From the NCBI GenBank assembly GCA_963761935.1, contig CAVXJU010000096.1, positions 104,165-168,164 of the forward strand: a stretch of DNA of 64,000 bases. Direction: 5' to 3'. This document shows, piece after piece, positions 8,937 to 40,970 of this stretch (positions within the stretch are counted from its first letter, which is position 1; every line of letters starts with the position of its first letter). A program made the position numbers and the translations under genes. The stretch comes from Terriglobia bacterium (GTDB lineage Bacteria > Acidobacteriota > Terriglobia > Bryobacterales > Bryobacteraceae). The notes beneath the pieces were generated by a model that was given only the letters and a program-made list of their open reading frames with translations, did not search any database and was not told the DNA's origin.

Positions 8937-10190
8937 ATGACTGCCGATCGGGTTGTGTTTGCCTTCCTGGCGTTGGCCGCGGCCGGCACTTGCGCCGCCC
9001 AAACTTACACTCTCTCCGATTGCAAGGACGGTGCCGCCCTTACAGTAAAGATCGACTCAGTGATCTCCACCTCAGGACCTTTTCCGAGCAACGGCGGGCA
9101 TTCACTCAACGTCATCTTCTTCGGCGACTTCACGCTCACGGTGAACGGCTCAACCCACACTTATCCCTCTGTGCTGGGCTCGGCAGGATTAAACTACACT
9201 CCCACGGTGGGAAACCTCACCGACTTTTTGATCGAGAGCGACGATGCCAGCGTCCGGGCGGTGGGAAATTTGCAAGCTGTCGGCGACCTGATCCCCAATG
9301 GTCTCTTGCCCCAAACCCTGCCTCCCATTTCGGCCTGGAACAATTCGACCGGCGACTACATACAGTATGGAAATCCGGTCGTAACGGACTACATCGATAT
9401 CGTGGGCGCCTGCGCGTCTGGCACCGGCGCCGCCACTCCCACCATCACCAACGTCATCACCGCCAGTGCATTTGGAGCGTTCAACGCCATCGCGCCCGGC
9501 ACTTGGATCGAAATCTACGGGAACAACCTGGCGCCCGACACGCGCCCATGGGCCAGCAGCGATTTCGACGGACAGACCGCGCCGATCTCGCTCGACGGCG
9601 TCCAGGTTACGGTCAACGGTCAGAATGCCTACCTGAGTTACATCGCCTCCAACCCCGGTCAGATCAATGCGCAGGTGCCTTATACCATCCCGATCAACCA
9701 AAAGGTGCCGGTCATCGTAACCAACAATGGCGTACCCAGCGCCGCTTACGACGTCACATCGAACGGCATCCAGCCGGGCCTGCTTGCTCCAGCCTCCTTC
9801 AAGATCGGCGCGAATCAATACGTGGTGGCGCTCGCGTCCGACGGAGCTACCTACATTCTTCCAACCGGTGCGATTCCGGGCGTCGCTTCGCGCCCCGCCA
9901 AACCCAACGAGACCATCACGCTGTATGGAATCGGATTTGGTTTGGTCTCGCCTCCCACCGCGGCCGGTGAGATCGCGCCAGCGTCGACGAGAACGCTCCT
10001 GCCCTTACAAATCTCGTTCGATCAGACGCCGGCCGAGATCACGTACGAAGGGCTTGCTCCCGGCTTCGTCGGACTATATCAGTTCGATGTGGTGGTGCCA
10101 TCGATACCCGACAACGATCTGGTTCCTTTGAAACTGACTCTGGACACCGTGGCCGGCGCTCAGACCGTCTACATCGCAGTGCACCAATAG
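8937..10190 (+). CDS. secreted protein with TIGR03437 (Solibacter-type IPT-like) C-terminal domain
   Basis: Signal peptide MTADRVVFAFLALAAAGTCAAQ. C-terminal IEIYGNNLA...GQINAQVPYTIP...YEGLAPGFVGLYQFDVVVP is characteristic of TIGR03437. Confidence 0.6.
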   Translation: MTADRVVFAFLALAAAGTCAAQTYTLSDCKDGAALTVKIDSVISTSGPFPSNGGHSLNVIFFGDFTLTVNGSTHTYPSVLGSAGLNYTPTVGNLTDFLIESDDASVRAVGNLQAVGDLIPNGLLPQTLPPISAWNNSTGDYIQYGNPVVTDYIDIVGACASGTGAATPTITNVITASAFGAFNAIAPGTWIEIYGNNLAPDTRPWASSDFDGQTAPISLDGVQVTVNGQNAYLSYIASNPGQINAQVPYTIPINQKVPVIVTNNGVPSAAYDVTSNGIQPGLLAPASFKIGANQYVVALASDGATYILPTGAIPGVASRPAKPNETITLYGIGFGLVSPPTAAGEIAPASTRTLLPLQISFDQTPAEITYEGLAPGFVGLYQFDVVVPSIPDNDLVPLKLTLDTVAGAQTVYIAVHQ

Positions 10191-11153
10191 CTATTGCGTG
10201 GGGTGTTCGCCGCCGTGCCCCTCAGCTTCGCCGATGTGGAATGCCTTGAGCAAGTCTGGCAGCGCGTAATTGCCTTCATGGCAGGCGTATTCGTACATCG
10301 GCGCGGCGGATCTCGCCATGGTCAGCTCGCCTTTCCAGGAACGCGTGAAGGCCGTGGGATCGTCCACTTCGAACCGATACAGAATCGTGTTCGAGTCCAT
10401 CAGGCTGAAGCGTTCCACAACGTGCAGATTCCGGTCCCAGCCGAAATTGCCGCCGGCGCCGTAGAAACCGCCCGCATCGTTGAAGTTGGTTGTATCCACC
10501 ACCAGCGTGCCGCCTTCCCAATGTCCCACTGAATCGCCCAGCCACAGCCTCACGCTGGACGGCGGATGCGGGCGCCCATCGAGAGCGATGATCCGAGTGT
10601 CGTGGATCATCTCCACGTTGATCAGCAGCTGATCGCCCGTCTGAATGATTTGGTAATTGCTGTTGTACGAATACGGAAGCATGGGCGGCACCGCGGTGAC
10701 GAACACCAGGCATTGATCCTGGAGACCCAGATCTTCAGCCCCATCCGGATGCCGCTGTAGTTCCATGCGGCGGCGTTTTTCGGCCGCGGCCGTGGGCGTC
10801 AGCGCGGGAATCCTGCCATCCGGCGGATCGGTCACGATAGACGTCCGCAGCGTTTTCACGACGTGAGAACCGAACTCCCGGAATAGAACGTTGTAAGTGC
10901 CGACGCTGCGCGAAGCCTCCTCAGACGACGGCTCCTGATTGCGAGCGCTCGACCGCTGTTCCCACTCGGCCGCCTCCGCGGGCGTGAAGAATTCTTTGTC
11001 CTTGAGCCGCGCGGGACGTTCCAGCGGCGTAGCGGTCGCCGAATTCCAGATGCCGGCGAAATCAGGATGCGTCGGCGCCGGAGACTGCGCAAATATGGGA
11101 CAGCCAATCGAAACCGCCGCCGCTGCAACTATAAAACTGCGATATGTAAACAA
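10191..11153 (-). CDS. secreted conserved hypothetical protein (320 aa)
   Basis: Signal peptide MFTYRSFIVAAAAVSIGCPIFAQ; balanced composition; YEYACHEGNY motif; abuts the previous gene's stop. Confidence 0.55.
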   Translation of the reverse strand: MFTYRSFIVAAAAVSIGCPIFAQSPAPTHPDFAGIWNSATATPLERPARLKDKEFFTPAEAAEWEQRSSARNQEPSSEEASRSVGTYNVLFREFGSHVVKTLRTSIVTDPPDGRIPALTPTAAAEKRRRMELQRHPDGAEDLGLQDQCLVFVTAVPPMLPYSYNSNYQIIQTGDQLLINVEMIHDTRIIALDGRPHPPSSVRLWLGDSVGHWEGGTLVVDTTNFNDAGGFYGAGGNFGWDRNLHVVERFSLMDSNTILYRFEVDDPTAFTRSWKGELTMARSAAPMYEYACHEGNYALPDLLKAFHIGEAEGHGGEHPTQ

Positions 11154-11289
11154 CTAGCTCAGTTTAGCCTATCCCGGCTCGACGATCAGCCTTTGACACC
11201 CTGCTACCGAGCGCGAATCTTTGCGCGTAAGATGGAGTGATCGACGCGCCGCCGGAGTCGAACTCGAAGAGAAAGAGAGGGTCATTCAA

Positions 11290-11751
11290 ATGAAACTCAC
11301 GCGCCGTTCCCCGATATCCTTTGGACCAGGCTTAGCCCTTGTGGCCGCCGCTTTCCTGATCGCTCAGGAGCAAGACCGCCAGCCCATGAACAACCCCAAC
11401 TTCAGTGCCACCGTCTACCAAGTGAAGGAGAACTCAACCGGAACCTTCGCCCATATTTATTTCCCGCCGGGCGCGCACACCAAATGGCATAGCCACGAGT
11501 TTGGCCAGGTCATTCTTTGCGAAGAGGGGACCTGCCTCAACGCGTTAAAAGGCGGACCCGTAGTGGAGCTGCATGCGGGCCAAACTTCTTACGCCCCGCC
11601 CAACGTGCCTCATTGGCAAGGCGCCGCCCCCAATGCAGGTGGAACGCAATTCAACACCGCGCGCGGAAAAATCACGTGGATGGATCCGGTGAGCGACGAG
11701 GAGTACAAGACCCCGGCATCGCATCTCGCCATCGTCTCACCGAAGAAGTAG
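11290..11751 (+). CDS. cupin domain protein with N-terminal signal/anchor
   Basis: ATG 11290 after GAAGAGAAAGAGAGGG; cupin motifs GAHTKWHSHEFGQV and PPNVPHWQGA. Confidence 0.65.
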   Translation: MKLTRRSPISFGPGLALVAAAFLIAQEQDRQPMNNPNFSATVYQVKENSTGTFAHIYFPPGAHTKWHSHEFGQVILCEEGTCLNALKGGPVVELHAGQTSYAPPNVPHWQGAAPNAGGTQFNTARGKITWMDPVSDEEYKTPASHLAIVSPKK

Positions 11752-26878: not shown

Positions 26879-26971
26879 CGCCGTCCAGGTTACTCCCGAC
26901 GAAGCGTGATGGTTGCCACGATCGAGAAGCCCAGGCTGGCGGGAGACTACCGCACAACGCGACACTAGAGT

Positions 26972-27725
26972 TTGTTCTCTCTGCTGCTGCACGTTTCGCC
27001 GGATCAAGAAGATTTTCTGGTCGCCGAGCTTTCCGATTGCGGCGTCTTGGGAATTACCGAGGAGCCCGGCGGCCTGCGCGCATTCTTCGACGACGCGGAT
27101 CGCGCGCAAGAATTACTCCGACGTTTCGCGCGCTATGGGCCGCAGCTCGAGCCAACGGAAACGGTCGATTGGGCTCAAGCTTTCGCGCGATGCGTGGCCA
27201 CCGCTGCTGATCGGAGAACGATTCTATTTAGTCGCGCCTTGGTCTCGAGACGAAACGCCGCCGGGGCGGCTGCGCCTGGAAATCGAACCGGGTATGGCGT
27301 GCGGCACTGGCCGGCATCCGGCGACGCAACTGTGTCTCGAAGCCTTGGAACGGTATGTGCGGCCGGGCGAATCGGTGCTGGACATCGGCACCGGTTCCGG
27401 CATCCTGGCTCAGGCGGCCAAGCTGCTGGGGGCCGCGAGCGTCGTGGGTTGCGACATTGATGCCGAGGCCATCGCCTTCACGCGTCCGCGCGCGCACGTA
27501 CCGCTGTTTGTAGGCTCGGTGGATGCGGTGCGCCCGCAGTCACGGGATCTCATTGTCGCCAACATCGATTCGGCTACGGTCGAACTGCTACGGCCGGAGC
27601 TGGAGCGCGTGCGCCGGAGCGATGGAACGCTGATTCTTTCAGGCTTTCCAGAATGGGATATTCCCGAAGGTTTCCACCCCAGAGAAACACTACGCCGCGA
27701 GGAGTGGGTGTGCCTGATTTGCTAG
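26972..27725 (+). pseudogene. prmA: ribosomal protein L11 methyltransferase PrmA, one frameshift near 27180-27190
   Basis: N-terminal frame LHVSPDQEDFLVAELSDCGVLGITEE...TVDWAQAF. Next frame RDAWPPLLIGERFYLVAPW...EPGMACGTGRHPATQLCLE...VLDIGTGSGILA...GCDID. Confidence 0.75.
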
Positions 27726-28745: not shown

Positions 28746-28906
28746 GTACTAACTCCTAGAGTCAAGTATAAACCTTCATACTGTATACGTATAGAGGTTT
28801 GAATGGGTTTCGACCAGAAATCAGGCGCGGTGCTGGCGGGCGAGCCGCTTTGGAAGCAATATCGTCAATAGTTTCCCGTTACAGAGCGAGCTAATTTACT
28901 TAAACC

Positions 28907-29956
28907 ATGCCGCCGTGGCGCCGCTACCTAAGGTTTCGCTCTGCCGCGATGCAGGCCTTCGCGGACGACGCCTTGAATTACGGTTCGCTGCACTACGATC
29001 AGTGGCTGGATACGTATGAAGCGCTGCGGGGTGCCGCTGGACGCCTGATCGGGGCCGACCGCGGCGAGATCGCGCTGGTCAAGAATACCTCCGAGGGAAT
29101 AGCCACGATAGCAATGGGAATGGATTGGCGGCCCGGTGACACGATCGTGGCGTTTGCCGAGGAGTTTCCAGCCAACTACTATCCTTGGAAACTGCTCGAA
29201 GCGCAACGTTGTTACGTCAAGTGGCTTTCCATTCACGATTCACTGGAGGTCATTGAAGAAGCTTGTGAAGGTGCCAAGCTTCTGGCCGTCAGTTTCGTGC
29301 AATATCTGGGCGGCCGCAGAGCGGATCTGGAAGGGATTGGCCGCGTCTGCCAGCGTCACGGCGTCTTCTTCTTGGTGGACGCGATTCAGGGACTGGGAGC
29401 CTTTCCGCTGGATGTTCGGGCGGCTCAGATCGACGCTTTGGCCGCGGACGGGCACAAATGGATGTTGGGGCCGGAAGGCTGCGGAATTTTGTTCGTCCGC
29501 AAGCAGCGGCAGGATTCGATTTTTCCGCGCGAGTTTGGTTGGACCAACGTGGCCGGTTACAACGATTACGCCTCGCGCGACATGACGCTGCGTTCGGACG
29601 CCGGGCGGTACGAGTGCGGGACGCTGAACACCATCGGCTGTTACGGCCTTGGCGCGTCGCTGGATTTTCTGCTGGGGATCGGGATCGAGCGCATTGGGTC
29701 CGCGGTGCAGTCGCTAGCGGATCAGTTGGCCGAAGGCGCGCAACGAAAAGGTTACAGCCTGCTGGGGGACCGGACGCCGGAGACGGGCGCAGGCATCGTG
29801 GCCATTCAGAAAATCGGTGTGGACAGCCGCGCGGTGGTACGCCAGCTGAAGGATAAAGGAATCGTTGCCGCGGCGCGCCAGGGGTGGGTGCGGTTGTCGC
29901 CGCATTTTTATATCAGCCCGGAAGAGATCGAGCGGGTGATCGACGCGCTGCCGTGA
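28907..29956 (+). CDS. class V aminotransferase / cysteine-desulfurase-like PLP enzyme; true 5' end (from about 28803) is disrupted
   Basis: Fold-type I class V features (SFVQYLGGRRADL, FLVDAIQGLG, ADGHKWMLGPEG). The upstream frames encode the expected FPVTERA..YLNHAAVAPLPK N-terminus, broken by a TAG and two frame changes. Confidence 0.7.
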   Translation: MPPWRRYLRFRSAAMQAFADDALNYGSLHYDQWLDTYEALRGAAGRLIGADRGEIALVKNTSEGIATIAMGMDWRPGDTIVAFAEEFPANYYPWKLLEAQRCYVKWLSIHDSLEVIEEACEGAKLLAVSFVQYLGGRRADLEGIGRVCQRHGVFFLVDAIQGLGAFPLDVRAAQIDALAADGHKWMLGPEGCGILFVRKQRQDSIFPREFGWTNVAGYNDYASRDMTLRSDAGRYECGTLNTIGCYGLGASLDFLLGIGIERIGSAVQSLADQLAEGAQRKGYSLLGDRTPETGAGIVAIQKIGVDSRAVVRQLKDKGIVAAARQGWVRLSPHFYISPEEIERVIDALP

Positions 29957-29984: not shown

Positions 29985-29994
29985 AGAGGGGCGC

Positions 29995-30249
29995 ATGAAG
30001 AAAGAGTACGATTTCAGCCAAGGCCGTCGAGGAGCTGTGATCAAAGTGTCTCCGGGAAAGACCAGGGTCACGATCCGGCTGGACAGCGACCTGCTGGAGT
30101 GGTTCCGGGAGCGGGTGGACGAAACTGGACACGGCAACTACCAAACCTTGATCAACGCTGCGTTGCGCACATTCGTGAAGCAGAAGCAGGAATCGCTGGA
30201 GGCCACGCTGCGGCGCGTGATTCGGGACGAATTGCGAAGGACCGGTTAG
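29995..30249 (+). CDS. BrnA/DUF4415-like ribbon-helix-helix antitoxin, no adjacent toxin gene
   Basis: MKKEYDFSQGRRGAVI...TRVTIRLDSDLLEWFRERVDETGHGNYQTLINAALRTFV matches the BrnA antitoxin pattern from memory. Confidence 0.6.
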   Translation: MKKEYDFSQGRRGAVIKVSPGKTRVTIRLDSDLLEWFRERVDETGHGNYQTLINAALRTFVKQKQESLEATLRRVIRDELRRTG

Positions 30250-30755
30250 TTAGGCTTAGGTTGCTGGCCGCTTGGCCGGCGCGCCAAAGTAAGAACCTTC
30301 AACAGGGGGTTGCCTCCCGTCTCGGGCCAGACGGTCTTGGAGTGCGATTTGTCGTCCACGCAGGTGTCGTAGACCTGCTTGACACCCTCGATCTTTCGCT
30401 GTTCGGCCTCGGCTTGCTCCCGCGTGGTTGGTCCAGCGAGTTTGAACACGTCATACAGGCGCGTGAATGGGCATTGGAAAGACGCAGCCCCGATGGTGAA
30501 ATAAGGACAAGCGTTCTTGGGCGCGCCGCTCGCGTTTCGGGGTTGATTCGGATCCTTGCGCGGTCGCAGGCCGATCGGTGGAATGCGGTGCTCGCCGCTC
30601 GAATCGGGTAACTGCTGAAAGTTCTGCACCACTTGCGCCACGAACGACGAGCCGCTGCCGGCGTCGGCGAAAGATTTCAGAGTTTGGAAGCATCCGTCGG
30701 CGATGGACCGCCGGATCTTGGCCGGTTGCATGCCCAAGTGAAGTGCAGAATTCAA
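30246..30755 (-). CDS. hypothetical ORF; either a separate gene or part of a 3' extension of the patatin gene
   Basis: Same frame as ORF 30765..31013, separated by a single TGA (30765-30767). No recognisable motifs. Confidence 0.3.
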   Translation of the reverse strand: MNSALHLGMQPAKIRRSIADGCFQTLKSFADAGSGSSFVAQVVQNFQQLPDSSGEHRIPPIGLRPRKDPNQPRNASGAPKNACPYFTIGAASFQCPFTRLYDVFKLAGPTTREQAEAEQRKIEGVKQVYDTCVDDKSHSKTVWPETGGNPLLKVLTLARRPSGQQPKPN

Positions 30756-30942
30756 AGGTGCCGTTCAAATGATCGGGACTGGACGGAAAAACCGGCAGGA
30801 CGCGCGGAATCCACGATGCTGTCCAGTAGCTTTTCCGATTCCGGCGCTGACGGCCGCGCCCGGAGCGTTCAGTAATCCGAGCAGTTCGCCTAATCTCGAA
30901 TGCACGGCTTCGGATGCGTTTTCGAAGCTGCGGATCTTCTGA

Positions 30943-33900
30943 TTATTTTCGAGCAGCTTGGTCCGCGCGTTGATGGCGAAAATGGTTTCGAAAGGGACTG
31001 TCGTTTTTTCCATCGTCCTTAGGATCGTTCTCCGGGTTCACATTCAGCGATCCGGCCAGGAACAGATCGGGGCAGGCGTGACGATGCGCCAGGAAATCGC
31101 GCGCGCTCAGCGTGGTGTTTTTAGTTTTGCGATATTCCGCCTGCACCTCCGACAGAATATCGATGGCGGGAAGGAACGGCAGGTTATCGAACATGCCGCC
31201 GTCGGAATAGCGCACGTCGATCGCGCCCTGGCCGGGTGTGACGTTACTCTGGCGGCGGGGAGCAAAGACGCACGGAAAAGCGCTCGAAGACAATCCCGCC
31301 TCTACGAAATCGTATGGGACGGCGTGATCGGCGGGACGGCGGCCGAGCAGGTGCGGGGTCTTACTACCAAGGTCGGTGGTGGTGGCGAAGAACGCGATGT
31401 CCTGGCCCTTTCTTACGCCCTGGTAGGGCTGCACGCAATTCAGATCGAGAAGCGGTGCGCCCAACAGCTGGCGCGCGGTTTGTTCCAGCAGCGAGGCGCC
31501 CATGATGGCGTAGCGAATATCCAAACGCTGCAAGCTCTCCTTGCGGAGTTGATAGAGGAATGAATAGGTGGCTTTGGTGACGTGCCCGGAGATCAGCTCG
31601 GCGGCGATCGAAGCGGTCCTTCGATGGGGAATCATGAAAATGTCGGAGATCGCATCCACCACGGCGGGGGGCGCGCCGGAGACGGCGAATCCGGGGTCGG
31701 AGCGCGCTCCTTTTCGCACTACACGCCGGATCTGGGCCGGGGATAGCTTCACGGAGCGGCCGCGGACGCCCAGTTCGCGCGACGCGCTCTTCAGTGTCTT
31801 GGTGAACGCAACTTTCTCGTCGACGTGCAGGAACACATCGGTGAGAGTCGTCAGGAGCGTCCATTTCTGATCGTCCGGCACGTTGAACAACGCGCCCAGC
31901 GCTCCGCCCATGAGGGTTCCCACCGATGCGCCTACGATGACATCCGGCCGGATTTTCGCCTGCACCAACGCGGCGATCATGCCGATGTGAAATGCTCCGC
32001 GGAAGACGCCGCCGCTGGCGACGAAGACGATACGCGGGTGCTCGGCCGACAATTGCGGGAAGCGCTGGAGCATGGTTTTATCGCCCGGCGCGAGTGGCTC
32101 TTCGTTGCGTGAAACGGAGCTGGTCTTGAACCAATCTCCTAACTGCTCCTGGCTGGGGCGGGTCAATTCGCCGGTGCAGCGCGCGCAGACCTCGGGGAGG
32201 CCGCAAGCTTGGGCCGCGGTCGCCGCACCGCCCCGAAGCTGGACCAACTGTTTTAGGAAATCCTGGCAGCTCACTTTGGTTCCCGCCGAGCCGCCGGCCG
32301 CGAGCGTGCGCCGGTATAAAGTCTGCAACGTGTGCCGGCAGCCGGAGGCAACCGCGTCCAGCGATTCGGTGCGTGTCGGGCTGATGGGATTGTCGAATGC
32401 CAGATCGTCATCGGGTGCGATTTCGTCGGCGAAGATGGGAAAAAACTTCTTACCGGCCACGTGGGCCGAAGCTTTTGGAGGCCTGGATGCGGCGCCGGGC
32501 GAATCGGACGAGGAAACCGGCTGCGGTCCTAAAGTCGCGGCGGATCCGGTAGAAGCCTGCGCCGCCGATCCTGCTCCAGCAGCAACAGCCGCGGCCTTCG
32601 AAATGGCCTCCTGCCGGTCCCGAATCTCCTTCTCCACCCGGCTCATGAAGTTGGTCTGCATGACCTCCAACTGCGTGTCCCTGCGCTTGGCCAGTTTGAG
32701 GCTGGCCATGCCGACGCTGACAATGTCGGTGCTCTCCTCGGCGATGGACTGGTTAGACTGAGCGCTCGGCAGTGGCACGCTGTAGATCACATGGATGGAC
32801 GGCTCATTCCCGTTGTCAGATAACGTCTCGGCCAGCGGTTCGCGTAATCGTAGAAAAGAGAAAAGCGCGGGCAGCGGATTCTCGCGCACGGCGCTGCCAT
32901 CCACCAGGTCCAACACTTTGGGGGCGACGGCTTTGCCAATCGGCTCGACATCGCGTTTCACCCATTGCATGATGTCATCGTGCTTAGTCAGACGTGTCGG
33001 CTCGAAGATGGGAACCTTGGTCAAGGCGGTTTTGAGAGAGTCCACCAGCGGCGATCCGATGGCGGCCCAGCGCTGGTCGGAACGGAGCGCCTTGCCGGTG
33101 CGGTCGCGAAGGGTATTCAGCCAGGAAGATACCAGCAGGATCTCCATGGGGTCTTTTTTGATGGTGCTGCGCTGGCCGTCCGGCTCGAAAATCTCGGTCA
33201 GCTTGCGGCGGAGGTGAAAATCGTCGATCACCGATTTCGTCAGGCCGGTATTCTGCAGCAATAGGTTCAGCAGCGCGGTCCCATTCGTGGCGATCAGTAC
33301 GCCGGCGAAGAGGAAGACGCCGGTTTCGAATATGAAAAATATCACGGCGAGAAGCAGGGAGGGGATGAAATCGAGTGCCGGCCAAAAGACATTGATGTTT
33401 TTGAGGAAGGGCTGAATGGGTTCCCAGAGCTGCTTGGAATTGATAATATTCGCCGCCGGCGCAGCGAGTGCGACGATCAGAGCGGCCAGGCCCAGCGCCA
33501 CGATCAGGAGCGGAATGAACGAAAGCAGCCAGATTTTCCAGCCGAACAGCGGCCGGCCCCACCACCGGATGCGCTGCTTCCACGGCTCCAATTCGTAGCG
33601 GTAGGAGAAGAACTGTGGCGCGAAGGTGACGTGGCGCGCGATCCCTCCGGTGAGGCGTACGGCCCAGAAGGCGAACATGATCCAACGGAGGAACCGCGGT
33701 CCGGGATAATTTTCCTTGGCCCGGACCCACATTACCGCGGTGCTGGTGGCGGTCTTGACCTTAACGGGCAGGCCTGCGATCCACTGGCCGAGCTTGACCA
33801 ACAAATATCGGCGGCGCCGCGCTTCCTTCTCGGCGGCCTGCAAATTTTCGGGCGTGGAGGTGTCCAGAATGGGTGGAAAATCGGCGAAAAAATCGGATTG

Positions 33901-34218
33901 ATCCGGAATCGCGTCCCAGAAAATGCTCAGCGGCTGATCCGACAATGCGGTGAGGTAGCGGCGAAACCAGGCCCAGCGCGCGGATTCCTCTTGTCCGGCC
34001 TTAGCGGACTGAAGCTCCTGATAGCAGCGCTGCATGGCTGCCGCCGAGAGCGCTCCCATGGAGATGCCGGCCGCGACTTGCGGGTTAGTGCGGCGGGCCG
34101 CCAGGTAGGCGTGAATGGTCCCGGCGCCGAACAGCGCGCCCGAGAATCCAGCCGTGAAGCAGACTGCGTCTTTGCCCTCACCGGCCAGTGTGTCTTTGAG
34201 TGCCGAATCGTCAGCCAT
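30943..34218 (-). CDS. 1091-aa membrane-embedded protein with two patatin-like phospholipase domains
   Basis: Domain 1: GFSGALFGAG, GISMG (S53, 34060-34062), DGSAVRENPLP (D440, 32899-32901). It is split by a hydrophobic block at about aa 178-320. Domain 2: SGGVFRG, GASVG (S765, 31924-31926), DGGMFDNLP (D1006, 31201-31203). Confidence 0.8.
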   Translation of the reverse strand: MADDSALKDTLAGEGKDAVCFTAGFSGALFGAGTIHAYLAARRTNPQVAAGISMGALSAAAMQRCYQELQSAKAGQEESARWAWFRRYLTALSDQPLSIFWDAIPDQSDFFADFPPILDTSTPENLQAAEKEARRRRYLLVKLGQWIAGLPVKVKTATSTAVMWVRAKENYPGPRFLRWIMFAFWAVRLTGGIARHVTFAPQFFSYRYELEPWKQRIRWWGRPLFGWKIWLLSFIPLLIVALGLAALIVALAAPAANIINSKQLWEPIQPFLKNINVFWPALDFIPSLLLAVIFFIFETGVFLFAGVLIATNGTALLNLLLQNTGLTKSVIDDFHLRRKLTEIFEPDGQRSTIKKDPMEILLVSSWLNTLRDRTGKALRSDQRWAAIGSPLVDSLKTALTKVPIFEPTRLTKHDDIMQWVKRDVEPIGKAVAPKVLDLVDGSAVRENPLPALFSFLRLREPLAETLSDNGNEPSIHVIYSVPLPSAQSNQSIAEESTDIVSVGMASLKLAKRRDTQLEVMQTNFMSRVEKEIRDRQEAISKAAAVAAGAGSAAQASTGSAATLGPQPVSSSDSPGAASRPPKASAHVAGKKFFPIFADEIAPDDDLAFDNPISPTRTESLDAVASGCRHTLQTLYRRTLAAGGSAGTKVSCQDFLKQLVQLRGGAATAAQACGLPEVCARCTGELTRPSQEQLGDWFKTSSVSRNEEPLAPGDKTMLQRFPQLSAEHPRIVFVASGGVFRGAFHIGMIAALVQAKIRPDVIVGASVGTLMGGALGALFNVPDDQKWTLLTTLTDVFLHVDEKVAFTKTLKSASRELGVRGRSVKLSPAQIRRVVRKGARSDPGFAVSGAPPAVVDAISDIFMIPHRRTASIAAELISGHVTKATYSFLYQLRKESLQRLDIRYAIMGASLLEQTARQLLGAPLLDLNCVQPYQGVRKGQDIAFFATTTDLGSKTPHLLGRRPADHAVPYDFVEAGLSSSAFPCVFAPRRQSNVTPGQGAIDVRYSDGGMFDNLPFLPAIDILSEVQAEYRKTKNTTLSARDFLAHRHACPDLFLAGSLNVNPENDPKDDGKNDSPFRNHFRHQRADQAARK

Positions 34219-34322
34219 CGGGGCGCCTCGACAGAGATTTCTAACTTATTTCAGAATTCTACTCGAAAAGATAATAAAAAAGAAGCCAATAATATGTCTT
34301 AAAAAATGGCGATGCGAATGGC

Positions 34323-34592
34323 TTAATCCAGCCCCAGTGGCTTCTTGGGCACTTGGTCGCGCTGCTTGCGCCACTTTTGCTGCATGCCGGTTACTTCCAC
34401 GAACACGACCACTAGCAGCAGGATCGACAGAATAATGCTGCCGGCCAGCCACATTCCGGACAGATCGCGCGGGTTGCCGGCCGCGCGCGACCACAGCACG
34501 GCGATGATGACCAGGCTGAGAACGATCCGCAAAATGCGGCGAGGCGATAAGCGCATAGGATCGCGCAAACCAGGGCGCGAATAAGGAATCAT
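34323..34592 (-). CDS. small 2-TM membrane protein upstream of the patatin gene
   Basis: Two hydrophobic helices (ILRIVLSLVIIAVLW, WLAGSIILSILLLVVVFVEV) and a basic tail. Start uncertain (34592 or 34556). Confidence 0.4.
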   Translation of the reverse strand: MIPYSRPGLRDPMRLSPRRILRIVLSLVIIAVLWSRAAGNPRDLSGMWLAGSIILSILLLVVVFVEVTGMQQKWRKQRDQVPKKPLGLD

Positions 34593-34636
34593 AGCAAGGC
34601 CGCAGGCTATAATTGAGACTCAGCCCGGGAGGACAG

Positions 34637-35938
34637 ATGGGCAAAATTCGCTACGCGGTTGGTGCGGCGGTGGTGGCTGCGGGATGGATGCTGGCGGCGG
34701 AGCTAGGCAAGGTGGACAGCAAAAACTTGCTGACCGGCCAGAGCGCGTTCGCCGACGCCCAGTCGCTCAAGCCGGGCACATTCCACAAGATCACCGCCAA
34801 CGATCTGCCCAAGCCCTTTGACACCAAATCCACACCCAATTTCCCGCGCGTCATTGCGCGGCCCGCGGACGCCTGGCCGCAGGCTCCGGTTGGATTCAAG
34901 GTGGAATTGTACGCCACCGGCTTCAACGAGCCTCGCCAGATTCGCGTGGCGCCCAATGGCGATTTCTTCATTGCCGAAAGCCGAGCGGGACAAATCAAAG
35001 TGGTTCGCGGGCGCGACAAAGAAGGGAAGGCGGAGCAGGTTTCCACTTTCGCCACCGGCCTGAGGCAGCCCTTCGGTGTGAATTTTTATCCGGCTGGGCC
35101 CAATCCGCAATGGGTTTATGTGGGCAATACCAACTCGGTGGTGCGCTTCCCCTATCACAACGGCGATCTCGAAGCGACCGGGCCGGCTGAAACTTTGATC
35201 AGCGACCTGCCCTCCGGCGGCAACCACTGGACGCGCGATCTGGTGTTCTCGAAAGACGGCCAGCGGCTGTTCGTGGCCGTCGGCTCGAACTCCAACATCG
35301 ACGATCCCGATACGCACGAGACGGAATTTCATCGCGCCAATATTCTGGAATACACGCCCGAAGGAAAATTCGCCGGCGTCTATGCGTCGGGAATTCGCAA
35401 TCCGGCGGGACTCGGCGTGAATCCGACCACCGGCGAGCTGTGGTGTTCGGTGAACGAGCGCGATGCGCTGGGCGATAACCTGGTTCCCGATTACATCACG
35501 CACGTCCAGCAGGGTGGTTTTTACGGCTGGCCGTTTTACTATATCGGCGGGCATCCGGATCCGCGGCTGAATGGCAAGCATCCGGAGCTGAAAGACAAAG
35601 TGATCGTGCCGGATGTTCTGTTGCAGCCGCACAACGCTTCGCTGGGGCTCACTTTCTACGAAGCTGAACAGTTCCCCAAGGAATATCGCGGCGATCTTTT
35701 TGCCAGCGAGCATGGATCCTGGAATCGCGCCGTGCGTTCGGGGTACGAAGTAGTGCGCGTTCCGCTGGAGAAAGGCCACGCGAGTGGGATTTACGAAGAT
35801 TTTCTGACCGGATTCGTCACCGCCGACGGCCAAGCCTGGGGGCGTCCGGTGGGTGTAGCGGTCGGCAAGGATGGCGCGCTGTATGTCACCGACGACGGCT
35901 CGCGGTCCATCTGGAGAGTCGGCTACACCGGCAAATAA
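34637..35938 (+). CDS. PQQ-dependent sugar (sorbosone/glucose) dehydrogenase-like beta-propeller
   Basis: Signal anchor; FNEPRQIRVAPNGDFFIAE, GIRNPAGLGVNPTTGELW, ERDALGDNLVPDY, FYGWPFYY. Confidence 0.85.
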   Translation: MGKIRYAVGAAVVAAGWMLAAELGKVDSKNLLTGQSAFADAQSLKPGTFHKITANDLPKPFDTKSTPNFPRVIARPADAWPQAPVGFKVELYATGFNEPRQIRVAPNGDFFIAESRAGQIKVVRGRDKEGKAEQVSTFATGLRQPFGVNFYPAGPNPQWVYVGNTNSVVRFPYHNGDLEATGPAETLISDLPSGGNHWTRDLVFSKDGQRLFVAVGSNSNIDDPDTHETEFHRANILEYTPEGKFAGVYASGIRNPAGLGVNPTTGELWCSVNERDALGDNLVPDYITHVQQGGFYGWPFYYIGGHPDPRLNGKHPELKDKVIVPDVLLQPHNASLGLTFYEAEQFPKEYRGDLFASEHGSWNRAVRSGYEVVRVPLEKGHASGIYEDFLTGFVTADGQAWGRPVGVAVGKDGALYVTDDGSRSIWRVGYTGK

Positions 35939-37852: not shown

Positions 37853-37901
37853 TTCATACTAGAAAGATCCCGCGCACGTCTTCTATAAGCCTGTTTTGTG
37901 C

Positions 37902-40900
37902 ATGTCGATACATAAATTCCTGTTCTTCTCGGGTGCGCTGCTCGCATTTTGCAGCACAGCGCGGCCCGCGGATTTCGCGCCGTCGCTCCAATGGGTGAAA
38001 ACGGCGGGTGGCAGCGGCTTGAGCACGGCCATCGCTGCCGCGGCGGATTCGAGCGGAAATCTCTACATCGCCGGAAATACTTCGTCGATTGATTTTCCGG
38101 CCGTATCCGCCGCTCAGCCGAATCCGGGCGGATCGCCGCTGGTACGAATTAATCCGGCCACGGGCGCCGCACAAAAATTGTATCCGCCGGGGTTGTCAAC
38201 TATCGGCAGCGTCGCCGCCGACCCGCAGAATTCGAATACGCTTTACGCCACGTCGGCCAATAGCATCTGGCGTAGCCCCGATGCCGGCTCTACCTGGACG
38301 TTGCTGTACTCGTTCGCATCTTCGATCCGCGTGGTATGCGTGGCGGTGGATCCGTCGAACAGCAACACTTTGTATGCCGGCACCGATAGCCAAGGCGTCT
38401 TCAAGAGTCTCGACGGAGGCCTCACCTGGACTGCGATCAACAATGGCATTCCGCCTGATAGCAGTGGGGCCACCGATGTCTACAATATCTGGATTGAGCC
38501 GCAACCGCCGAGTGTGATCCTGGGGGCTTCCGCCAACGGTATCGTGCGGAGCGCGGATGGCGGCGCCACCTGGACGGTGGTGCTGAAAACGGACGTCATT
38601 AATAACACCCTGGCTTTCGATCCGTTGAATGCCGGCACGGTTTACGTCGCGGAACCAACCGGCCCAATCGTCAAGAGCACCGACGGTGGGCTAACTTTTA
38701 CGGCATTGCCCTCGATGCCTGGCGGCGAAACGGTGACCGCGTTGATTGCCGATCCGCTGCACGCCGGGGTTCTGTACGCCAGCGTTGCTTCCAACATTTT
38801 CCAAAGCCTGGACGGCGGCGTCACTTGGACCGCTAAAGCCGCCGGATACGCTTATCTTCTGGCCGCCGATCCGAATCAGCCGGTGCTGTACGCCGACATA
38901 TTAAACGTTGGGATCGTGAAGTCCACCGACGGTTTCAACACCGTGTCGACGGTCGGCCCGCCCAACGCGTCGCTGATCCAAATGCTCGTGGCCGGAGGCG
39001 ATCTTCTGCTCGTGGTGGGGCCGAGCGACGACGTGTTCGTCCTCAAGCTCGATCCGAATGGCAACATCTTATACTCAACCTATTTTGGCGGCAGCGGCAA
39101 CGATATGACGGGAGCGCTGGCCGTGAGCGCGGACGGCAGCGTCTACGTCGCCGGTGTCACAGAGTCTCCGGATCTCCCAGTCACAGCCGGTGCATACGAA
39201 TCCTCGCCACCGTCGCCTTTCACGACATCGGACTTTATGGTCAAGTTGAATCCCGACGGATCGCTGGGCTGGGCGACGTATTTCGCCGATTCCCGCACTC
39301 AGGTGCAGGCCGTCGCTTTGGACTCCGCCGGGAATCCCTACGTATCCGGAATGAGCACAGGCGGTTTGCCAACTACGCCCGGCGCCTATCAGACCCAATT
39401 CCAGCAGTCGGAGACTTGCACCGGATTGATCGGTTGCATCCCGGGCCCCACGTCCGCGTTTGTAACCAAGTTCAACGCAGCCGGGTCAGGGCTGATTTAT
39501 TCCACCTACGTTTCCACCGACGGCAACCAGAACCCGGTCCAGGACGGAACGGCTCTGGCGGTGGACCCGAGCGGAGATGTTTATTTCGGCGGCCAAAATA
39601 TCGTTATCAAGTTGAATCCCACCGGCTCCGAGTTACTCGCCTCCGCGGGACAACCGGGTACTTCCATCTCAGCACTCGCTTTGGACGCGATTTCGAACGT
39701 CTACACCACCGGCATTGCGACCTATTCCTACAACGGCGCCAGCCCGAGCTTCGATTTTCCTTCCACTCCAATGGCGTTTGAACCTTCCCCCCAGCCGGCA
39801 ATTCCAGCGCTGCCCAATGAAGCTCCGGCGGGTGGAGGTTCGGACGCTTTCGTGGTGAAGTGGGACAGCGGCCTTTCGCAAATCGTGGCCGCAACGCTGC
39901 TGGGAGGCGAGCTGGCGGACTCCGGAGAAAGCATCGCCATCGACGGCGCCGGGAACGTGATCGTCAGCGGCTCCACCGATTCCAAGGCGTTTCCTACGCA
40001 CGCGCCATTTCAGGTCGCGTTCTCAGCGCGCGCCGGGTTTGTTGCTGAGCTTGACTCCAGCCTCTCGCATCTTCTTTTCTCGACGTACCTGGGAGACACG
40101 CGTGCCTTCGAGGCCCGCAGCGTTGTGCCGGACGGCCGAGGAAACGTTCTGGTGGCGGGGTCGACGCTCGAAACGGGCGACCTTTTTATCGGCGGGGATC
40201 CCGGCCAATCGTATAACTCCGGCGATCTGGTGGTGGCCAACAAGATTGCGCTGCCGCAGGCGCCCGCCGCGCGGCTCGATTCGGTGCAGAATTTCGCCGG
40301 CCGCATGGCCGCGCCCATCGCGCCTGGCGAACCCATCGTCGCGGTGGGCTCGGGCTTCGGCGCTGACGCGCAAATCTTCATTGACGGCGTACCGCTTTCG
40401 ACGGTCAGTGCCAGCGCGAATGCGGTGGTGGCCGTGATGCCGGATGATACCAAGACATCCGGGGCGCTCGCGATTGAAGTGGGGACTGGCGGCGCTTTCT
40501 CGAACGTGTTGTTGGCGCCTGCCGCGCCTGCCTCTCCGGGCATTTACTCGCTGGACGGCAGCGGTTTCGGCCAGGGATACATTCTGAACAGTGACGGGAC
40601 CTTGAATTCGCCCACCAATCCAGCTGCTGCCGGCTCGGCCATCACGATCTTCGCCGCGGGCCAGGGACCATACAGCCTTTCTGGAGGCTATGCGGTCACG
40701 GCACAAATGCCGTCCGTCTTCATCGACGGTTTCTACGCAAGCGGCATCGCGGCGGTGGCGGGACCGGTGGCCGGGCTGCCTGGCAACGTGTACCAGCTTG
40801 GCGTCTACGTCCCGGACCCGGCGCTACTGGCTAGCCAGAATCCGAATCTCATCAATTTTCAATTTCCTCCACAGGTCGGCGTCAAGCTCGTCATGGGCGG

Positions 40901-40970
40901 GGTGAGTCCCGAGAATCCTGACAATTCCGTGATGATCAGCCAGCCCGGGATCGTGCTGAACGTGAAATAG
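37902..40970 (+). CDS. large secreted protein: BNR/Asp-box propeller + SBBP beta-propeller repeats + TIGR03437 C-terminal domain
   Basis: Five SxDxGxTW boxes (SPDAGSTWT, SLDGGLTWT, SADGGATWT, STDGGLTFT, SLDGGVTWT). SBBP-like YSTYFGGSGND...VYVAG repeats. C-terminal AGLPGNVYQLGVYVP. Confidence 0.75.
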   Translation: MSIHKFLFFSGALLAFCSTARPADFAPSLQWVKTAGGSGLSTAIAAAADSSGNLYIAGNTSSIDFPAVSAAQPNPGGSPLVRINPATGAAQKLYPPGLSTIGSVAADPQNSNTLYATSANSIWRSPDAGSTWTLLYSFASSIRVVCVAVDPSNSNTLYAGTDSQGVFKSLDGGLTWTAINNGIPPDSSGATDVYNIWIEPQPPSVILGASANGIVRSADGGATWTVVLKTDVINNTLAFDPLNAGTVYVAEPTGPIVKSTDGGLTFTALPSMPGGETVTALIADPLHAGVLYASVASNIFQSLDGGVTWTAKAAGYAYLLAADPNQPVLYADILNVGIVKSTDGFNTVSTVGPPNASLIQMLVAGGDLLLVVGPSDDVFVLKLDPNGNILYSTYFGGSGNDMTGALAVSADGSVYVAGVTESPDLPVTAGAYESSPPSPFTTSDFMVKLNPDGSLGWATYFADSRTQVQAVALDSAGNPYVSGMSTGGLPTTPGAYQTQFQQSETCTGLIGCIPGPTSAFVTKFNAAGSGLIYSTYVSTDGNQNPVQDGTALAVDPSGDVYFGGQNIVIKLNPTGSELLASAGQPGTSISALALDAISNVYTTGIATYSYNGASPSFDFPSTPMAFEPSPQPAIPALPNEAPAGGGSDAFVVKWDSGLSQIVAATLLGGELADSGESIAIDGAGNVIVSGSTDSKAFPTHAPFQVAFSARAGFVAELDSSLSHLLFSTYLGDTRAFEARSVVPDGRGNVLVAGSTLETGDLFIGGDPGQSYNSGDLVVANKIALPQAPAARLDSVQNFAGRMAAPIAPGEPIVAVGSGFGADAQIFIDGVPLSTVSASANAVVAVMPDDTKTSGALAIEVGTGGAFSNVLLAPAAPASPGIYSLDGSGFGQGYILNSDGTLNSPTNPAAAGSAITIFAAGQGPYSLSGGYAVTAQMPSVFIDGFYASGIAAVAGPVAGLPGNVYQLGVYVPDPALLASQNPNLINFQFPPQVGVKLVMGGVSPENPDNSVMISQPGIVLNVK

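Follow-up and report, generated by a model that had tools for sequence, protein, structure and literature searches.

The 1091-aa open reading frame (ORF) on the minus strand at 30943..34218 of the window, that is, of the whole 64,000-nucleotide stretch of DNA analysed here, carries two sets of patatin catalytic motifs. An earlier note saw in it a two-headed membrane lipase which, with a small membrane protein and an AT-rich control region, could form a membrane-remodelling or abortive/defensive effector module. To our knowledge, patatin-type lipases have a single catalytic domain each, whether they work as soluble enzymes, as secreted toxins or as effectors in defence. The locus raises the question of what this gene encodes, how far it extends and whether it acts with its neighbours. 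The answer that we hold to be probable, with some reserve, is that of one stand-alone gene for an inner-membrane-anchored protein of about 1322 aa, in which two patatin-type Ser–Asp acyl-hydrolase domains would face the cytoplasm and hydrolyse or remodel lipids, the stop that ends the ORF being an assembly error. All features described below lie on the minus strand.

Extent of the gene and origin of the stop at 30943

The 1091-aa ORF is present in the ORF list of the window; gene callers gave the same product, and it is identical to the database protein P0001. However, tblastn searches with the intact homologues P0002, P0003, P0004 and P0006 run on past its end, through three reading frames, to 30255–30267, and the ORFs 30765..31013 and 30246..30755 encode the C-terminus of the tandem-patatin protein. 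The suggestion that downstream ORFs may extend the protein was therefore well founded, the gene reaching 30246 by way of four single-base (+1) insertions. These are confined to a patch at 30735..30997, with sites at 30997, 30842–30844, 30802 and 30735–30739, and they are seen in DNA alignments to a homologous locus (L001) and, separately, to the locus of a strain that is 97.2% identical over 15.5 kb (L085) and encodes an intact 1322-aa protein. Without the four bases the gene (30246..34218) measures 3969 nt, or about 1322 codons, and is equal in length to the intact L085 gene. A 93% relative has 1316 aa, and the homologues measure 1150–1650 aa.

The premature stop most likely reflects errors of the metagenome assembly, which is prone to indels and would have gained four single bases here, because the 97%-identical strain is intact, the changes in the corrected frame are nearly all synonymous and the PrmA gene in the window is broken too. 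Over codons 1073–1165, synonymous and non-synonymous differences number 12:2 against L085 and 14:3 against L001. The PrmA gene is split over two frames, and the window differs from L085 by 77 mostly 1-nt gaps, which are clustered in patches. In L085, for its part, a histidine kinase gene is shortened and a GSDH gene split, both being full length in the window. Single-base indels in the assembly thus distort several neighbouring genes as well as this ORF, which as delimited in the earlier note would be an artefactually shortened form of the protein of about 1322 aa.

If the insertions were real mutations, the locus would be a true pseudogene, yielding at most a 1091-aa protein that lacks its C-terminus. 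The deposited sequence does contain them, and P0001 was called from it; they lie outside long homopolymers, in a patch richer in substitutions than its surroundings, and truncation at 30943 costs the protein its near-invariant residues H1149, C1175, C1236, C1248 and C1285. Yet four +1 events inside 263 nt, with none in the remaining 3.7 kb, do not resemble neutral decay, and the 12:2 ratio, the match of the corrected length to the intact gene and the clustered 1-nt indels elsewhere in the same assembly, PrmA included, also speak for assembly errors. Truncated copies of the gene in several long-read-style metagenome-assembled genomes (MAGs) point the same way. A pseudogene is accordingly unlikely. 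Programmed frameshifting was rejected, as four separate +1 insertions that the 97%-identical strain lacks do not amount to a recoding signal.

The two patatin-type domains and the membrane insertion

The six motifs quoted in the earlier note are all correct, as are their residue numbers, the codons of the catalytic residues lying at 34060–34062 (S53), 32899–32901 (D440), 31924–31926 (S765) and 31201–31203 (D1006). Domain 2, the C-terminal of the two, is a patatin domain of the canonical RssA/PlpD type, in which GGxRG, GxSxG and DGG are all intact. It spans aa 728 to about 1157 of the corrected protein, and its first-frame part (aa 728–1072; 31003..32037) contains the Gly-rich loop S735-G-G-V-F-R740-G, with the canonical G-G-x-[RK]-G, as well as GAS765VG and D1006GG. 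Residue conservation was counted over 86 family members, and G736, G737, R740, S765 and D1006 are each present in all of them. Pfam PF01734 matches aa 733–1019 with an E-value of 6.4e-24 and 85.6 bits (cutoff 27.7); the best PDB sequence match is PlpD (5fqu; E 3.4e-4). A Foldseek search with the AlphaFold2 (AF2) model of the intact homologue P0074, which is 38% identical, likewise retrieved PlpD (E 2e-5, prob 1.0, TMt 0.58), along with VipD and CapE.

The patch that carries the insertions (30735..30997) encodes a long helix and the VLPVFPxDxxHLNGTFxFC strand region, which complete domain 2. It is followed by a C-terminal Cys-rich subdomain (30246..30734), read in another frame (ORF 30246..30755) and delineated by tblastn, conservation and the P0074 model, with the residues C1175, C1236, C1248, C1285 and H1291 (P0093 numbering). 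In the model it is made up of helices and a small sheet, predicted with pLDDT > 90.

Domain 1 is, as judged from its conserved residues and predicted structure, probably a genuine but highly divergent patatin domain. Its first part (aa 17–172; 33703..34170), recognised by Pfam, conservation and the AF2 model, comprises strand 1, the Gly-rich loop and G51-I-S53-M-G55; its second part (aa 330–498; 32725..33231) comprises the block LVDSLKTALTKVPIFEP, which resembles patatin block III, and LDLVD440GSAVRENPLP. G51, S53 and G55 occur in 86/86 members, D440 in 85/86 and G441 in 82/86, and N447 and P448 are invariant. Pfam Patatin matches domain 1 of the window over profile positions 2–109, below the cutoff (23.9 bits against 27.7; E 5.5e-5); among N-domains of the family, 20/20 match PF01734 at E < 0.01 (best 1.3e-12), over the first half of the profile only. 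The AF2 model of the N-terminal half (pLDDT 86, and > 90 over aa 17–172) has the order strand–Gly-loop–helix–strand–Ser–helix, followed further on by strand–Asp. The top enzyme matches of this model in Foldseek all belong to the patatin/FabD superfamily (PlpD, VipD, iPLA2-beta and ExoU), the best of them being PlpD at E 0.19 and prob 0.80. Nothing was found by Foldseek at E <= 1e-3, and matches to ABC transporters reflect the long helices only. A search of PDB sequences with an N-domain profile from which the insertion had been deleted gave nothing significant, the best relevant match being the nucleophile elbow of FabD (E 0.56). When the N- and C-domain profiles were compared by hhalign, the LVDSLKTALTKVPIFEP block was paired with the FVEAxLASSAFPxVFAP block of domain 2; at 23% probability, this shows a correspondence of motifs and is no proof of homology. 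The claim of two patatin-type domains is nevertheless supported, since the N-domains of the family match Pfam Patatin and S53 and D440 are conserved in 86 and 85 of the 86 members.

The domains differ in the Gly-rich loop. That of domain 1 is T22-A-G24-F-S-G27-A (T-A-G-x-x-G-A), the canonical G-G-x-[RK]-G being absent; at the Arg/Lys position, Gly is found in 73/86 members and a basic residue in none. Without this Arg, domain 1 could be something other than a phospholipase. The same loop, together with the sub-threshold Pfam and PDB similarity and the tight packing of both domains implied by a high pTM, would fit an inactive pseudo-patatin, serving as membrane anchor or as intramolecular dimer partner or regulator of a single active C-terminal lipase. 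We think this rather unlikely: retention of Ser in 86/86 and of Asp in 85/86 sequences that are just 35–45% identical overall is unusual for dead domains, and mammalian PNPLA-type patatins likewise do without that Arg (GxGxxG).

The cap region between Ser and Asp of domain 1, the domain taken here as a divergent patatin, is replaced by a membrane insertion, which reaches up to about 470 aa in relatives. The hydrophobic insertion described in the earlier note between S53 and D440 is indeed present, at aa ~173–329 (33232..33702), where both hydropathy and AF2 helices place it. Its strongest hydrophobic segments are aa 234–252 and 291–321, and the helices of the model cover aa 234–259 and 280–311. 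Probably, on the strength of sequence and model, the insertion is a hairpin of two transmembrane (TM) helices (aa ~228–259 and ~280–311) with a short outside loop. Ahead of the hairpin, basic residues prevail (6 K+R, 2 D+E), whereas neither of the remaining flanks carries a net charge. Over the family the insertion measures 123–473 aa; its length was taken for comparison rather than the number of TM segments, a hydropathy count of which double-counts overlaps.

A long single helix (aa 499–557; 32548..32724) leaves domain 1 in the AF2 model, and the P0074 model has an equivalent at residues 455–492. It leads into an A/S/G/P low-complexity linker (aa ~558–595; 32434..32547), which is evident from the translation, is not conserved and has no consensus columns in the family alignment (A2). 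Next comes a conserved middle region (32119..32433), to which no Pfam family matches. C627, C651, C678 and C681 in this region are each present in 86/86 members, and these four invariant cysteines probably form a structural metal site. The C-x5-C-x2-C cluster of the earlier note is correctly located, the codons of C672, C678 and C681 falling within 32176–32205; family conservation holds for C678 and C681 but not for C672, which is found in merely 5/86 members, 71/86 having Pro instead. The whole protein would be compact, since AF2 predicts the intact homologue P0074 as one unit with pLDDT 91.1 and pTM 0.91.

Flanking sequences, distribution and the defence and toxin readings

Upstream of the gene, on the same strand, there is indeed a 2-TM ORF. 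It extends to 34592, which gave the 89 aa previously reported; the gene probably starts at M13 (34556), to judge from the starts of its orthologues, and would then encode 77 aa (34323..34556). Pfam has no family above threshold for this protein. Synonymous differences outnumber non-synonymous ones in its gene (13:3, 19:10 and 18:9), and GC3 is 79%. The orthologues, which are 87–96% identical, were found by tblastn only in the loci L007–L009.

The AT-rich intergenic region (34219..34322) contains a candidate promoter and is specific to this clade. As the earlier note had it, it contains a 73-nt stretch (34237–34309) with 17 G+C (23%) and a TAGAAT on the minus strand at 34256–34261. This is the sole 73-nt segment at or below 30% GC in the 64 kb (mean 60%, sd 6%), and its core, TTTCGAGTAGAAT-CT-AAATAAGT, is invariant in L007–L009. 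Three promoter-like sites, two of them on the gene strand, occur in the AT-rich region against 0.3 expected, and a GAGG Shine–Dalgarno sequence stands 7 nt ahead of the tandem-patatin ATG. Assignment of a promoter is tentative, because the candidate for a sigma-70 −35 element 17–18 nt from TAGAAT (TTCTTT) is unconvincing, and because the TATTAT hexamer used by the two gene-strand matches of the promoter scanner is not conserved in L008 and L009.

Neither element belongs to the family as a whole. The proposed 2-TM 'partner' and AT-rich 'control region' occur at only three loci, those most closely related (identity 81% or higher): among the other 33 family loci, 32 have no same-strand TM ORF upstream and one (L042) has an unrelated 148-aa ORF, and the AT-rich region is absent upstream of the other family members. 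The conserved linkage to the small gene for which the earlier note had proposed to look, and whose absence it had named as refuting its reading, was not found across the family, and the gene is a clade-specific neighbour, not a family partner.

The family itself is small and restricted to the Acidobacteriota. In an exhaustive search of representative clusters with a fragment from the window as query, it was represented by 231 of 1.84 billion clusters, the complete matches all having 1140–1680 aa. Over 34 family loci, no neighbouring gene family occurs in more than 5, synteny being limited to sub-clades. In the window, the neighbours are housekeeping genes (flagellar, PrmA, peptidase and two-component genes), and an orphan antitoxin gene, BrnA, lies directly against the 3′ end of the tandem-patatin gene; at the homologous locus L002 the adjoining gene encodes a type VI secretion system (T6SS) Tle1-like lipase domain. 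The tandem-patatin protein is best read as a vertically inherited, lineage-specific cellular enzyme of the Acidobacteriota and no member of a multi-gene module.

Patatin lipases are effectors in CBASS and other defence systems, which lends some appeal to the idea of an anti-phage or abortive-infection module, in which the lipase, together with the small 2-TM protein, would destroy the cell's own membrane on a signal. A weak PADLOC match to 'Effector phospholipase' (E 2.9e-4), the Foldseek match to CapE (9iom; E 1e-3) and the BrnA gene would be in keeping with it, but both similarities are confined to the generic patatin core. Moreover, no cyclase, sensor, SAVED or TIR partner lies within ~8 kb on either side or in L001, L002, L004, L005, L006 and L085; the 2-TM gene is missing at 33/36 family loci, the context is housekeeping, and the 34 loci share no conserved neighbour, the distribution being vertical in a single phylum. 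The suggestion of a defensive or abortive effector is accordingly very unlikely to be correct. Even less probable, to the point of being hard to credit, is a secreted or injected phospholipase toxin such as ExoU, VipD, PlpD or Tle. The closest solved structures are indeed those of PlpD, VipD and ExoU, and the L002 homologue adjoins the Tle1-like gene. However, the resemblance extends no further than the catalytic core (TMq <= 0.20), the protein has no signal peptide, POTRA, beta-barrel or chaperone gene, and no secretion-system genes are linked to it in 34 loci. Furthermore, it has TM helices in its interior, and it carries invariant Cys4 clusters, a type of metal site usual in cytoplasmic proteins.

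Proposed function and relation to known patatins

The stand-alone cellular enzyme that we favour would have both catalytic domains facing the cytoplasm, because a signal peptide is lacking, the halves of domain 1 must co-fold and basic residues precede the hairpin. Domain 1 would have a transmembrane 'lid' of its own, which keeps its active site at the surface of the membrane. The most likely substrates are lipids in the cytoplasmic leaflet, which the protein would deacylate or transacylate in the service of membrane-lipid turnover or remodelling. The two sites are not equivalent and may attack different ester bonds or work one after the other, say as a phospholipase A and then as a lysophospholipase. 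For the family as a whole, we infer substrate, type of reaction (hydrolase or transacylase) and topology.

A bolder proposal, which we consider improbable, is that of a dedicated lipid-remodelling machine with two active sites, unique to the Acidobacteriota, in which the TM-gate lid extracts a lipid and passes the product to the canonical site or transacylates it. Such a machine might handle the unusual lipids of the phylum, for instance by building or turning over lipids that span the membrane or are atypical in other ways, and would, if real, represent a mode of intramembrane substrate access new for patatin enzymes.

Under the more modest reading of a cytoplasm-facing lipid hydrolase, too, a membrane-embedded lid that works as proposed would give the patatin class a new route to bilayer substrates. 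The family joins two non-equivalent patatin domains in what is predicted to be one rigid protein, with TM helices within the first cap. The Acidobacteriota, abundant in soil and still little understood, have unusual membrane lipids, and the cultured isolate Granulicella sp. S190 has an orthologue, so that the function is testable.

The two-patatin membrane architecture is a new arrangement within a known kind of enzyme, being covered by none of the solved structures, curated family models or literature searched; a literature search on tandem or double patatins, patatins of Acidobacteria and integral-membrane bacterial patatins returned nothing relevant. The earlier view that the protein is not CapV-, ExoU- or RssA-like is borne out. 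In databases the family goes by the annotation 'predicted acylesterase/phospholipase RssA', and RssA/YchK (COG1752; PF01734) does share domain 2 with its SGGVFRG, GASVG, ASSAFPxVFxP and DGG. However, RssA-type proteins are single-domain, soluble and of about 300 aa, whereas the tandem-patatin protein is about 1000 residues longer and contains, besides domain 2, two Cys clusters and a divergent patatin domain into which a membrane insertion is built. With the NCBIfam RssA model it scores 23 bits, where the cutoff is 272.

PlpD of Pseudomonas aeruginosa (type Vd; 5fya/5fqu) is the best PDB match of both domains. It consists of one patatin domain and, as its means of secretion, a POTRA domain with a 16-strand beta-barrel, whereas the tandem-patatin protein has no Pfam match to POTRA or barrel, opens directly with the patatin strand instead of a signal peptide and has alpha-helical TM segments. 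ExoU and VipD share, according to Foldseek, the patatin core and extensive helical additions, both between the catalytic residues and beyond them; their single catalytic domain, host cofactors and delivery by type III or type IV secretion with chaperones have no counterpart here. CapV and CapE have the patatin fold in common with the protein, but they are single-domain proteins of ~300–350 aa that are switched on by a nucleotide signal and adjoin a CD-NTase, in contrast to the two catalytic domains and TM helices in ~1322 aa found here; neither within ~8 kb of the gene nor in the six homologous loci screened for defence partners was a CD-NTase or other defence sensor detected.

A working analogy is offered by the eukaryotic NTE/PNPLA6 and cPLA2, membrane-associated lipases of the patatin/cPLA2 type in which a Ser–Asp hydrolase, tethered by a TM segment of its own, acts on bilayer phospholipids in lipid homeostasis. 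No specific sequence relationship to either was detected, and human GIVD cPLA2 is a weak fold match to the P0074 model (rank 30, E 1.7). In cPLA2, too, Ser and Asp are separated by a large cap. The one TM helix of NTE lies at the N-terminus, and its single patatin domain is accompanied by cNMP-binding domains, whereas the tandem-patatin protein would carry its TM helices inside a patatin domain and has two catalytic domains.

Extent of the gene and integrity of the assembly

The 1091-aa ORF described in the earlier note is present at 30943..34218 (minus strand), and every motif quoted for it lies at the residue numbers given there, the codons for S53, D440, S765 and D1006 occupying positions 34060-34062, 32899-32901, 31924-31926 and 31201-31203 of the minus strand and those for C672, C678 and C681 falling within 32176-32205 of the same strand. 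All 92 homologs found are either longer than this ORF or fragments; the complete ones measure 1150-1650 aa, and P0002, which is 93% identical, has 1316 aa. In tblastn searches with intact homologs the match runs through three reading frames to about 30255-30267, and DNA alignment with the syntenic locus L001 reveals a single inserted base at each of four separate places in the window (30997, 30842-44, 30802 and 30735-39); the 7.5 kb of coding sequence that the two share contain no other indel that breaks the frame. Because the matches cross frames and the four insertions account for the shifts, the ORFs 30765..31013 and 30246..30755 are, on sequence grounds, the C-terminus of the same protein, as the suggestion that downstream ORFs might extend it had anticipated. 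Another assembly from this species, L085 (97.2% identity over 15.5 kb), carries an intact gene for a 1322-aa product, P0093, and removal of the four inserted bases brings the window gene to 3969 nt, exactly the length in L085. In codons 1073-1165, where the gene is broken, synonymous differences outnumber non-synonymous ones by 12 to 2 relative to L085 and by 14 to 3 relative to L001; in the corrected frame this stretch has therefore been evolving as a coding region.

The premature stop is thus most likely an assembly artefact. The window and L085 are separated by 77 gap openings, mostly of 1 nt and grouped into patches (24-27.5 kb and 30.7-31.0 kb). The housekeeping gene for PrmA (ribosomal protein L11 methyltransferase) is split in the window over two overlapping frames (26913..27725 and 26972..27460), and in L085, conversely, the His-kinase is shortened and GSDH is split, both being of full length in the window. 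Truncated copies of the tandem-patatin gene also occur in several long-read-style MAGs. A true pseudogene, arising from a real and very recent inactivation in this strain, would be an alternative source of the stop; given the largely synonymous divergence of the broken stretch and its position within a patch of indels, we regard this as unlikely.

Between 24300 and 27500, and especially at PrmA, the window differs from its 97%-identical counterpart L085 by dozens of 1-nt indels. Such a pattern points to patchy errors in the consensus of one assembly or of both, and ORF calls in that region are therefore untrustworthy. The class-V aminotransferase (ORF 28907..29956) has two single-base insertions relative to L085 at its 5′ end, at 28889 and 28938; its product is 349 aa long in the window and 383 aa in L085, and its Pfam match begins only at profile position 42, so that its N-terminus in the window is probably frameshifted as well.

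Two patatin-type domains and a membrane insertion

The protein has two conserved Ser-Asp sites. Domain 2, from aa 728, is a canonical patatin (Pfam E 6.4e-24; E 3.4e-4 against PlpD by sequence), in which G736, G737, R740, S765 and D1006 are invariant. The N-terminal half is far more divergent. Alone, the N-terminus of the window protein scores 23.9 bits against Pfam Patatin, below the 27.7 cutoff, and covers the first half of the profile; when the membrane insertion is excised from diverse family members, however, 20 of 20 N-domains match PF01734 at E < 0.01 (best 1.3e-12). Among 86 members sharing just 35-45% identity, G51, S53 and G55 are conserved in all, D440 in 85 and G441 in 82. The blocks follow the patatin order (Gly-rich loop, GxSxG, A-L-x-A-A-L-A-x-P-x-L-F-x-P, D-G), and hhalign pairs the nucleophile elbows and third blocks of the two domains, at low probability. 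The AF2 model of aa 1-560 (pLDDT 86.3, pTM 0.82) opens with the expected strand-loop-helix-strand-Ser-helix, and another strand ends at D440. Foldseek returned nothing for this model at E ≤ 1e-3; its enzyme matches all belong to the patatin/FabD superfamily, namely PlpD (prob 0.80), VipD, iPLA2-beta, ExoU and malonyl-CoA:ACP transacylase. Taken with the model, these data argue that domain 1 is a genuine, strongly divergent patatin-type domain that retains its catalytic dyad and could be a phospholipase in the strict sense, in agreement with the earlier reading of this half as a patatin. One patatin-defining feature is absent: the Gly-rich loop, T-A-G-x-x-G-A, has no conserved Arg/Lys, and the phosphate-binding Arg of site 2 is missing from site 1. 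Domain 1 could accordingly be viewed as a dead pseudo-enzyme; with the Ser and Asp kept in nearly every member this seems rather improbable, and it would be compatible with the picture drawn here apart from the two-site step.

The hydrophobic insertion reported between the Ser and Asp of domain 1 was recovered by hydropathy at aa ~173-329, with the strongest segments at 234-252 and 291-321; AF2 places helices at 234-259 and 280-311 of the window protein. In patatin and cPLA2-type enzymes the cap or lid is located between Ser and Asp. The insertion, which is part of the same polypeptide, occupies this cap position at site 1, and its length ranges from 123 to 473 aa over the family. In a sub-family comprising P0008, P0010, P0018 and similar homologs, an insertion of 400-470 aa with many hydrophobic helices replaces that of ~160 aa (family alignment A2, columns between reference aa 172 and 330), and the lid thus looks, in sequence, as if it can expand into a full polytopic membrane domain. 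The flank preceding the hairpin is basic (six K+R, two D+E), which agrees with a cytoplasmic location; the inter-helix loop and the post-hairpin flank carry no net charge. Since the window protein has no signal peptide and domain 1 can fold only if its two halves come together, the simplest topology would be an in-in hairpin that leaves both catalytic domains on the cytoplasmic side.

The middle region holds four invariant cysteines, C627, C651, C678 and C681. The previously described C-x5-C-x2-C cluster therefore stands for its last two members, but C672 is Pro in 71 of 86 proteins. In the C-terminal part, broken in the window, H1149, C1157, C1175, C1236, C1248, C1285 and H1291 are kept in 75-86 of 86, and two structural metal sites, one in each region, may reasonably be predicted. 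The AF2 model of P0074, an intact 1144-aa homolog, has a pLDDT of 91.1 and a pTM of 0.91, for which reason the whole protein is predicted to pack into a single compact, fixed unit and not to resemble beads on a string. Foldseek matches to this model are all patatin domains (PlpD at 2e-5, a 2025-26 lipase cryo-EM entry, VipD, CapE and ExoU), and any one solved structure accounts for at most about a fifth of it (TMq ≤ 0.20). Pfam and NCBIfam searches with the window protein, and Pfam searches with intact homologs, returned nothing besides patatin.

Distribution and genomic setting

With one genome scanned per species, full-length relatives are restricted to Acidobacteriota (Bryobacterales, Terriglobia, Acidobacteriaceae, Thermoanaerobaculia, Ca. 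Angelobacter and Solibacter), one being carried by the cultured Granulicella sp. S190 (NZ_LMUD01000039, locus L020, 3968-7468). Matches in other phyla run through the generic patatin motif only; two fragments derive from bins labelled as other phyla. When aa 1-560 were compared exhaustively by phmmer with 1.84 billion cluster representatives, 231 matches were obtained, 119 of them at E ≤ 1e-30. Because every complete match is 1140-1680 aa long, the divergent N-domain seems to exist solely in the tandem architecture, and the family is small; that architecture is retained in P0202 (27% identity), the most distant of the full-length members examined. Neighbourhoods vary between genomes: when the flanking ORFs of 34 loci were clustered, no neighbour family recurred in more than five, and all recurrences lay within sub-clades. 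The gene is thus inherited on its own inside one phylum.

The 89-aa ORF upstream does contain the two hydrophobic segments ascribed to it, and, with a synonymous excess and a GC3 of 79%, it is a real gene, probably of 77 aa from a start at M13. By tblastn, orthologs occur only at three loci (L007-L009, at least 81% identity); of the 33 other loci, 32 lack an upstream TM ORF on the same strand and the remaining one carries an unrelated ORF of 148 aa, so that the idea of a conserved partner has to be abandoned. The 73-nt stretch at 34237-34309, with 17 G+C (23%) and TAGAAT at 34256-34261 on the gene strand as reported, is the sole window of that size at or below 30% GC in the 64 kb (mean 60%, sd 6%). 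It is confined to the clade of the small gene, where its core, TTTCGAGTAGAAT-CT-AAATAAGT, is invariant. The island is plausible as the promoter of the lipase gene, TAGAAT being the candidate -10 and GAGG the ribosome-binding site; a promoter scanner found three promoter-like sites where 0.3 would be expected, a good -35 element is not apparent, and the region scanned around the small gene holds no terminator-like site. As a control region it is hence credible in its own clade but is not a family feature, and island and small gene alike are lineage-local and do not count among the defining traits of the protein family.

The small gene and the divergent GSDH-type dehydrogenase gene (34613..35938, plus strand) are only ~20-55 nt apart, depending on the start codon (gap 34557-34612), and their promoters must therefore overlap if the small gene has its own. 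At several Bryobacterales loci (L012, L013, L015, L017, L035 and L051), a conserved (G/A)GTATGATCG(G/A)AACC directly abuts the tandem-patatin start codon, which is provisional at these loci; it might serve as a -10-like box for leaderless transcription, or the gene might really start somewhere else.

The window setting is ordinary chromosome and no defence island: the neighbours encode FliF, response regulators, PrmA, an M48 peptidase, the class-V aminotransferase, an orphan BrnA, the GSDH-type dehydrogenase, a LytS-type kinase, a repeat protein and a LytTR regulator. A two-headed membrane lipase might be pictured as a defence or abortive-infection effector, as had been proposed; in this setting, and with no conserved neighbour, we consider that highly unlikely, and a secreted toxin, for a protein with no signal peptide, still less credible. 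The module of partner gene, control region and defence thus falls, and part of what had been observed was most likely assembly artefact.

The BrnA-like antitoxin ORF lies at ~29992..30249 (plus strand; region 29986-30249). In L001, a 93% relative, a BrnT toxin gene (PF04365, 13087-13346) sits between BrnA and the aminotransferase; it is precisely missing from the window (junction 29986|29987), and L085 likewise has BrnA without BrnT. Between the LytS-type kinase and LytTR regulator, a 1024-aa SBBP/BNR beta-propeller repeat protein (37896..40970, plus strand) occupies the slot held in L001 by an unrelated 1156-aa CarboxypepD_reg/OMP beta-barrel protein, making this a variable slot within a two-component locus. 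At the L002 locus only, the tandem-patatin gene (P0045) faces a convergent gene (9414-11696, minus strand) whose 760-aa product contains a T6SS Tle1-like lipase catalytic domain.

Possible role and relation to known enzymes

A cytoplasm-facing, membrane-anchored two-site lipid enzyme is the reading that we moderately favour; we hold its architecture and gene extent with considerable assurance and its specific biochemical role only tentatively. With the catalytic domains facing the cytoplasm, the insertion would keep site 1 at the membrane surface, and the substrates would be bilayer lipids. The two non-equivalent sites might act on different ester bonds or sequentially, through deacylation, lysolipid hydrolysis or transacylation, in membrane-lipid turnover or remodelling.

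In databases these proteins already carry a generic name, 'patatin-like phospholipase family protein'. Our literature search found no paper on a tandem or membrane-inserted bacterial patatin or on this family, in keeping with the remark that the architecture was unrecognised. The protein represents a new architecture of a well-known enzyme kind and not a new kind of system. In sequence and fold it is closest to RssA-type proteins and to PlpD, and the nearest working analogy, as a membrane-tethered enzyme, is NTE/PNPLA6.
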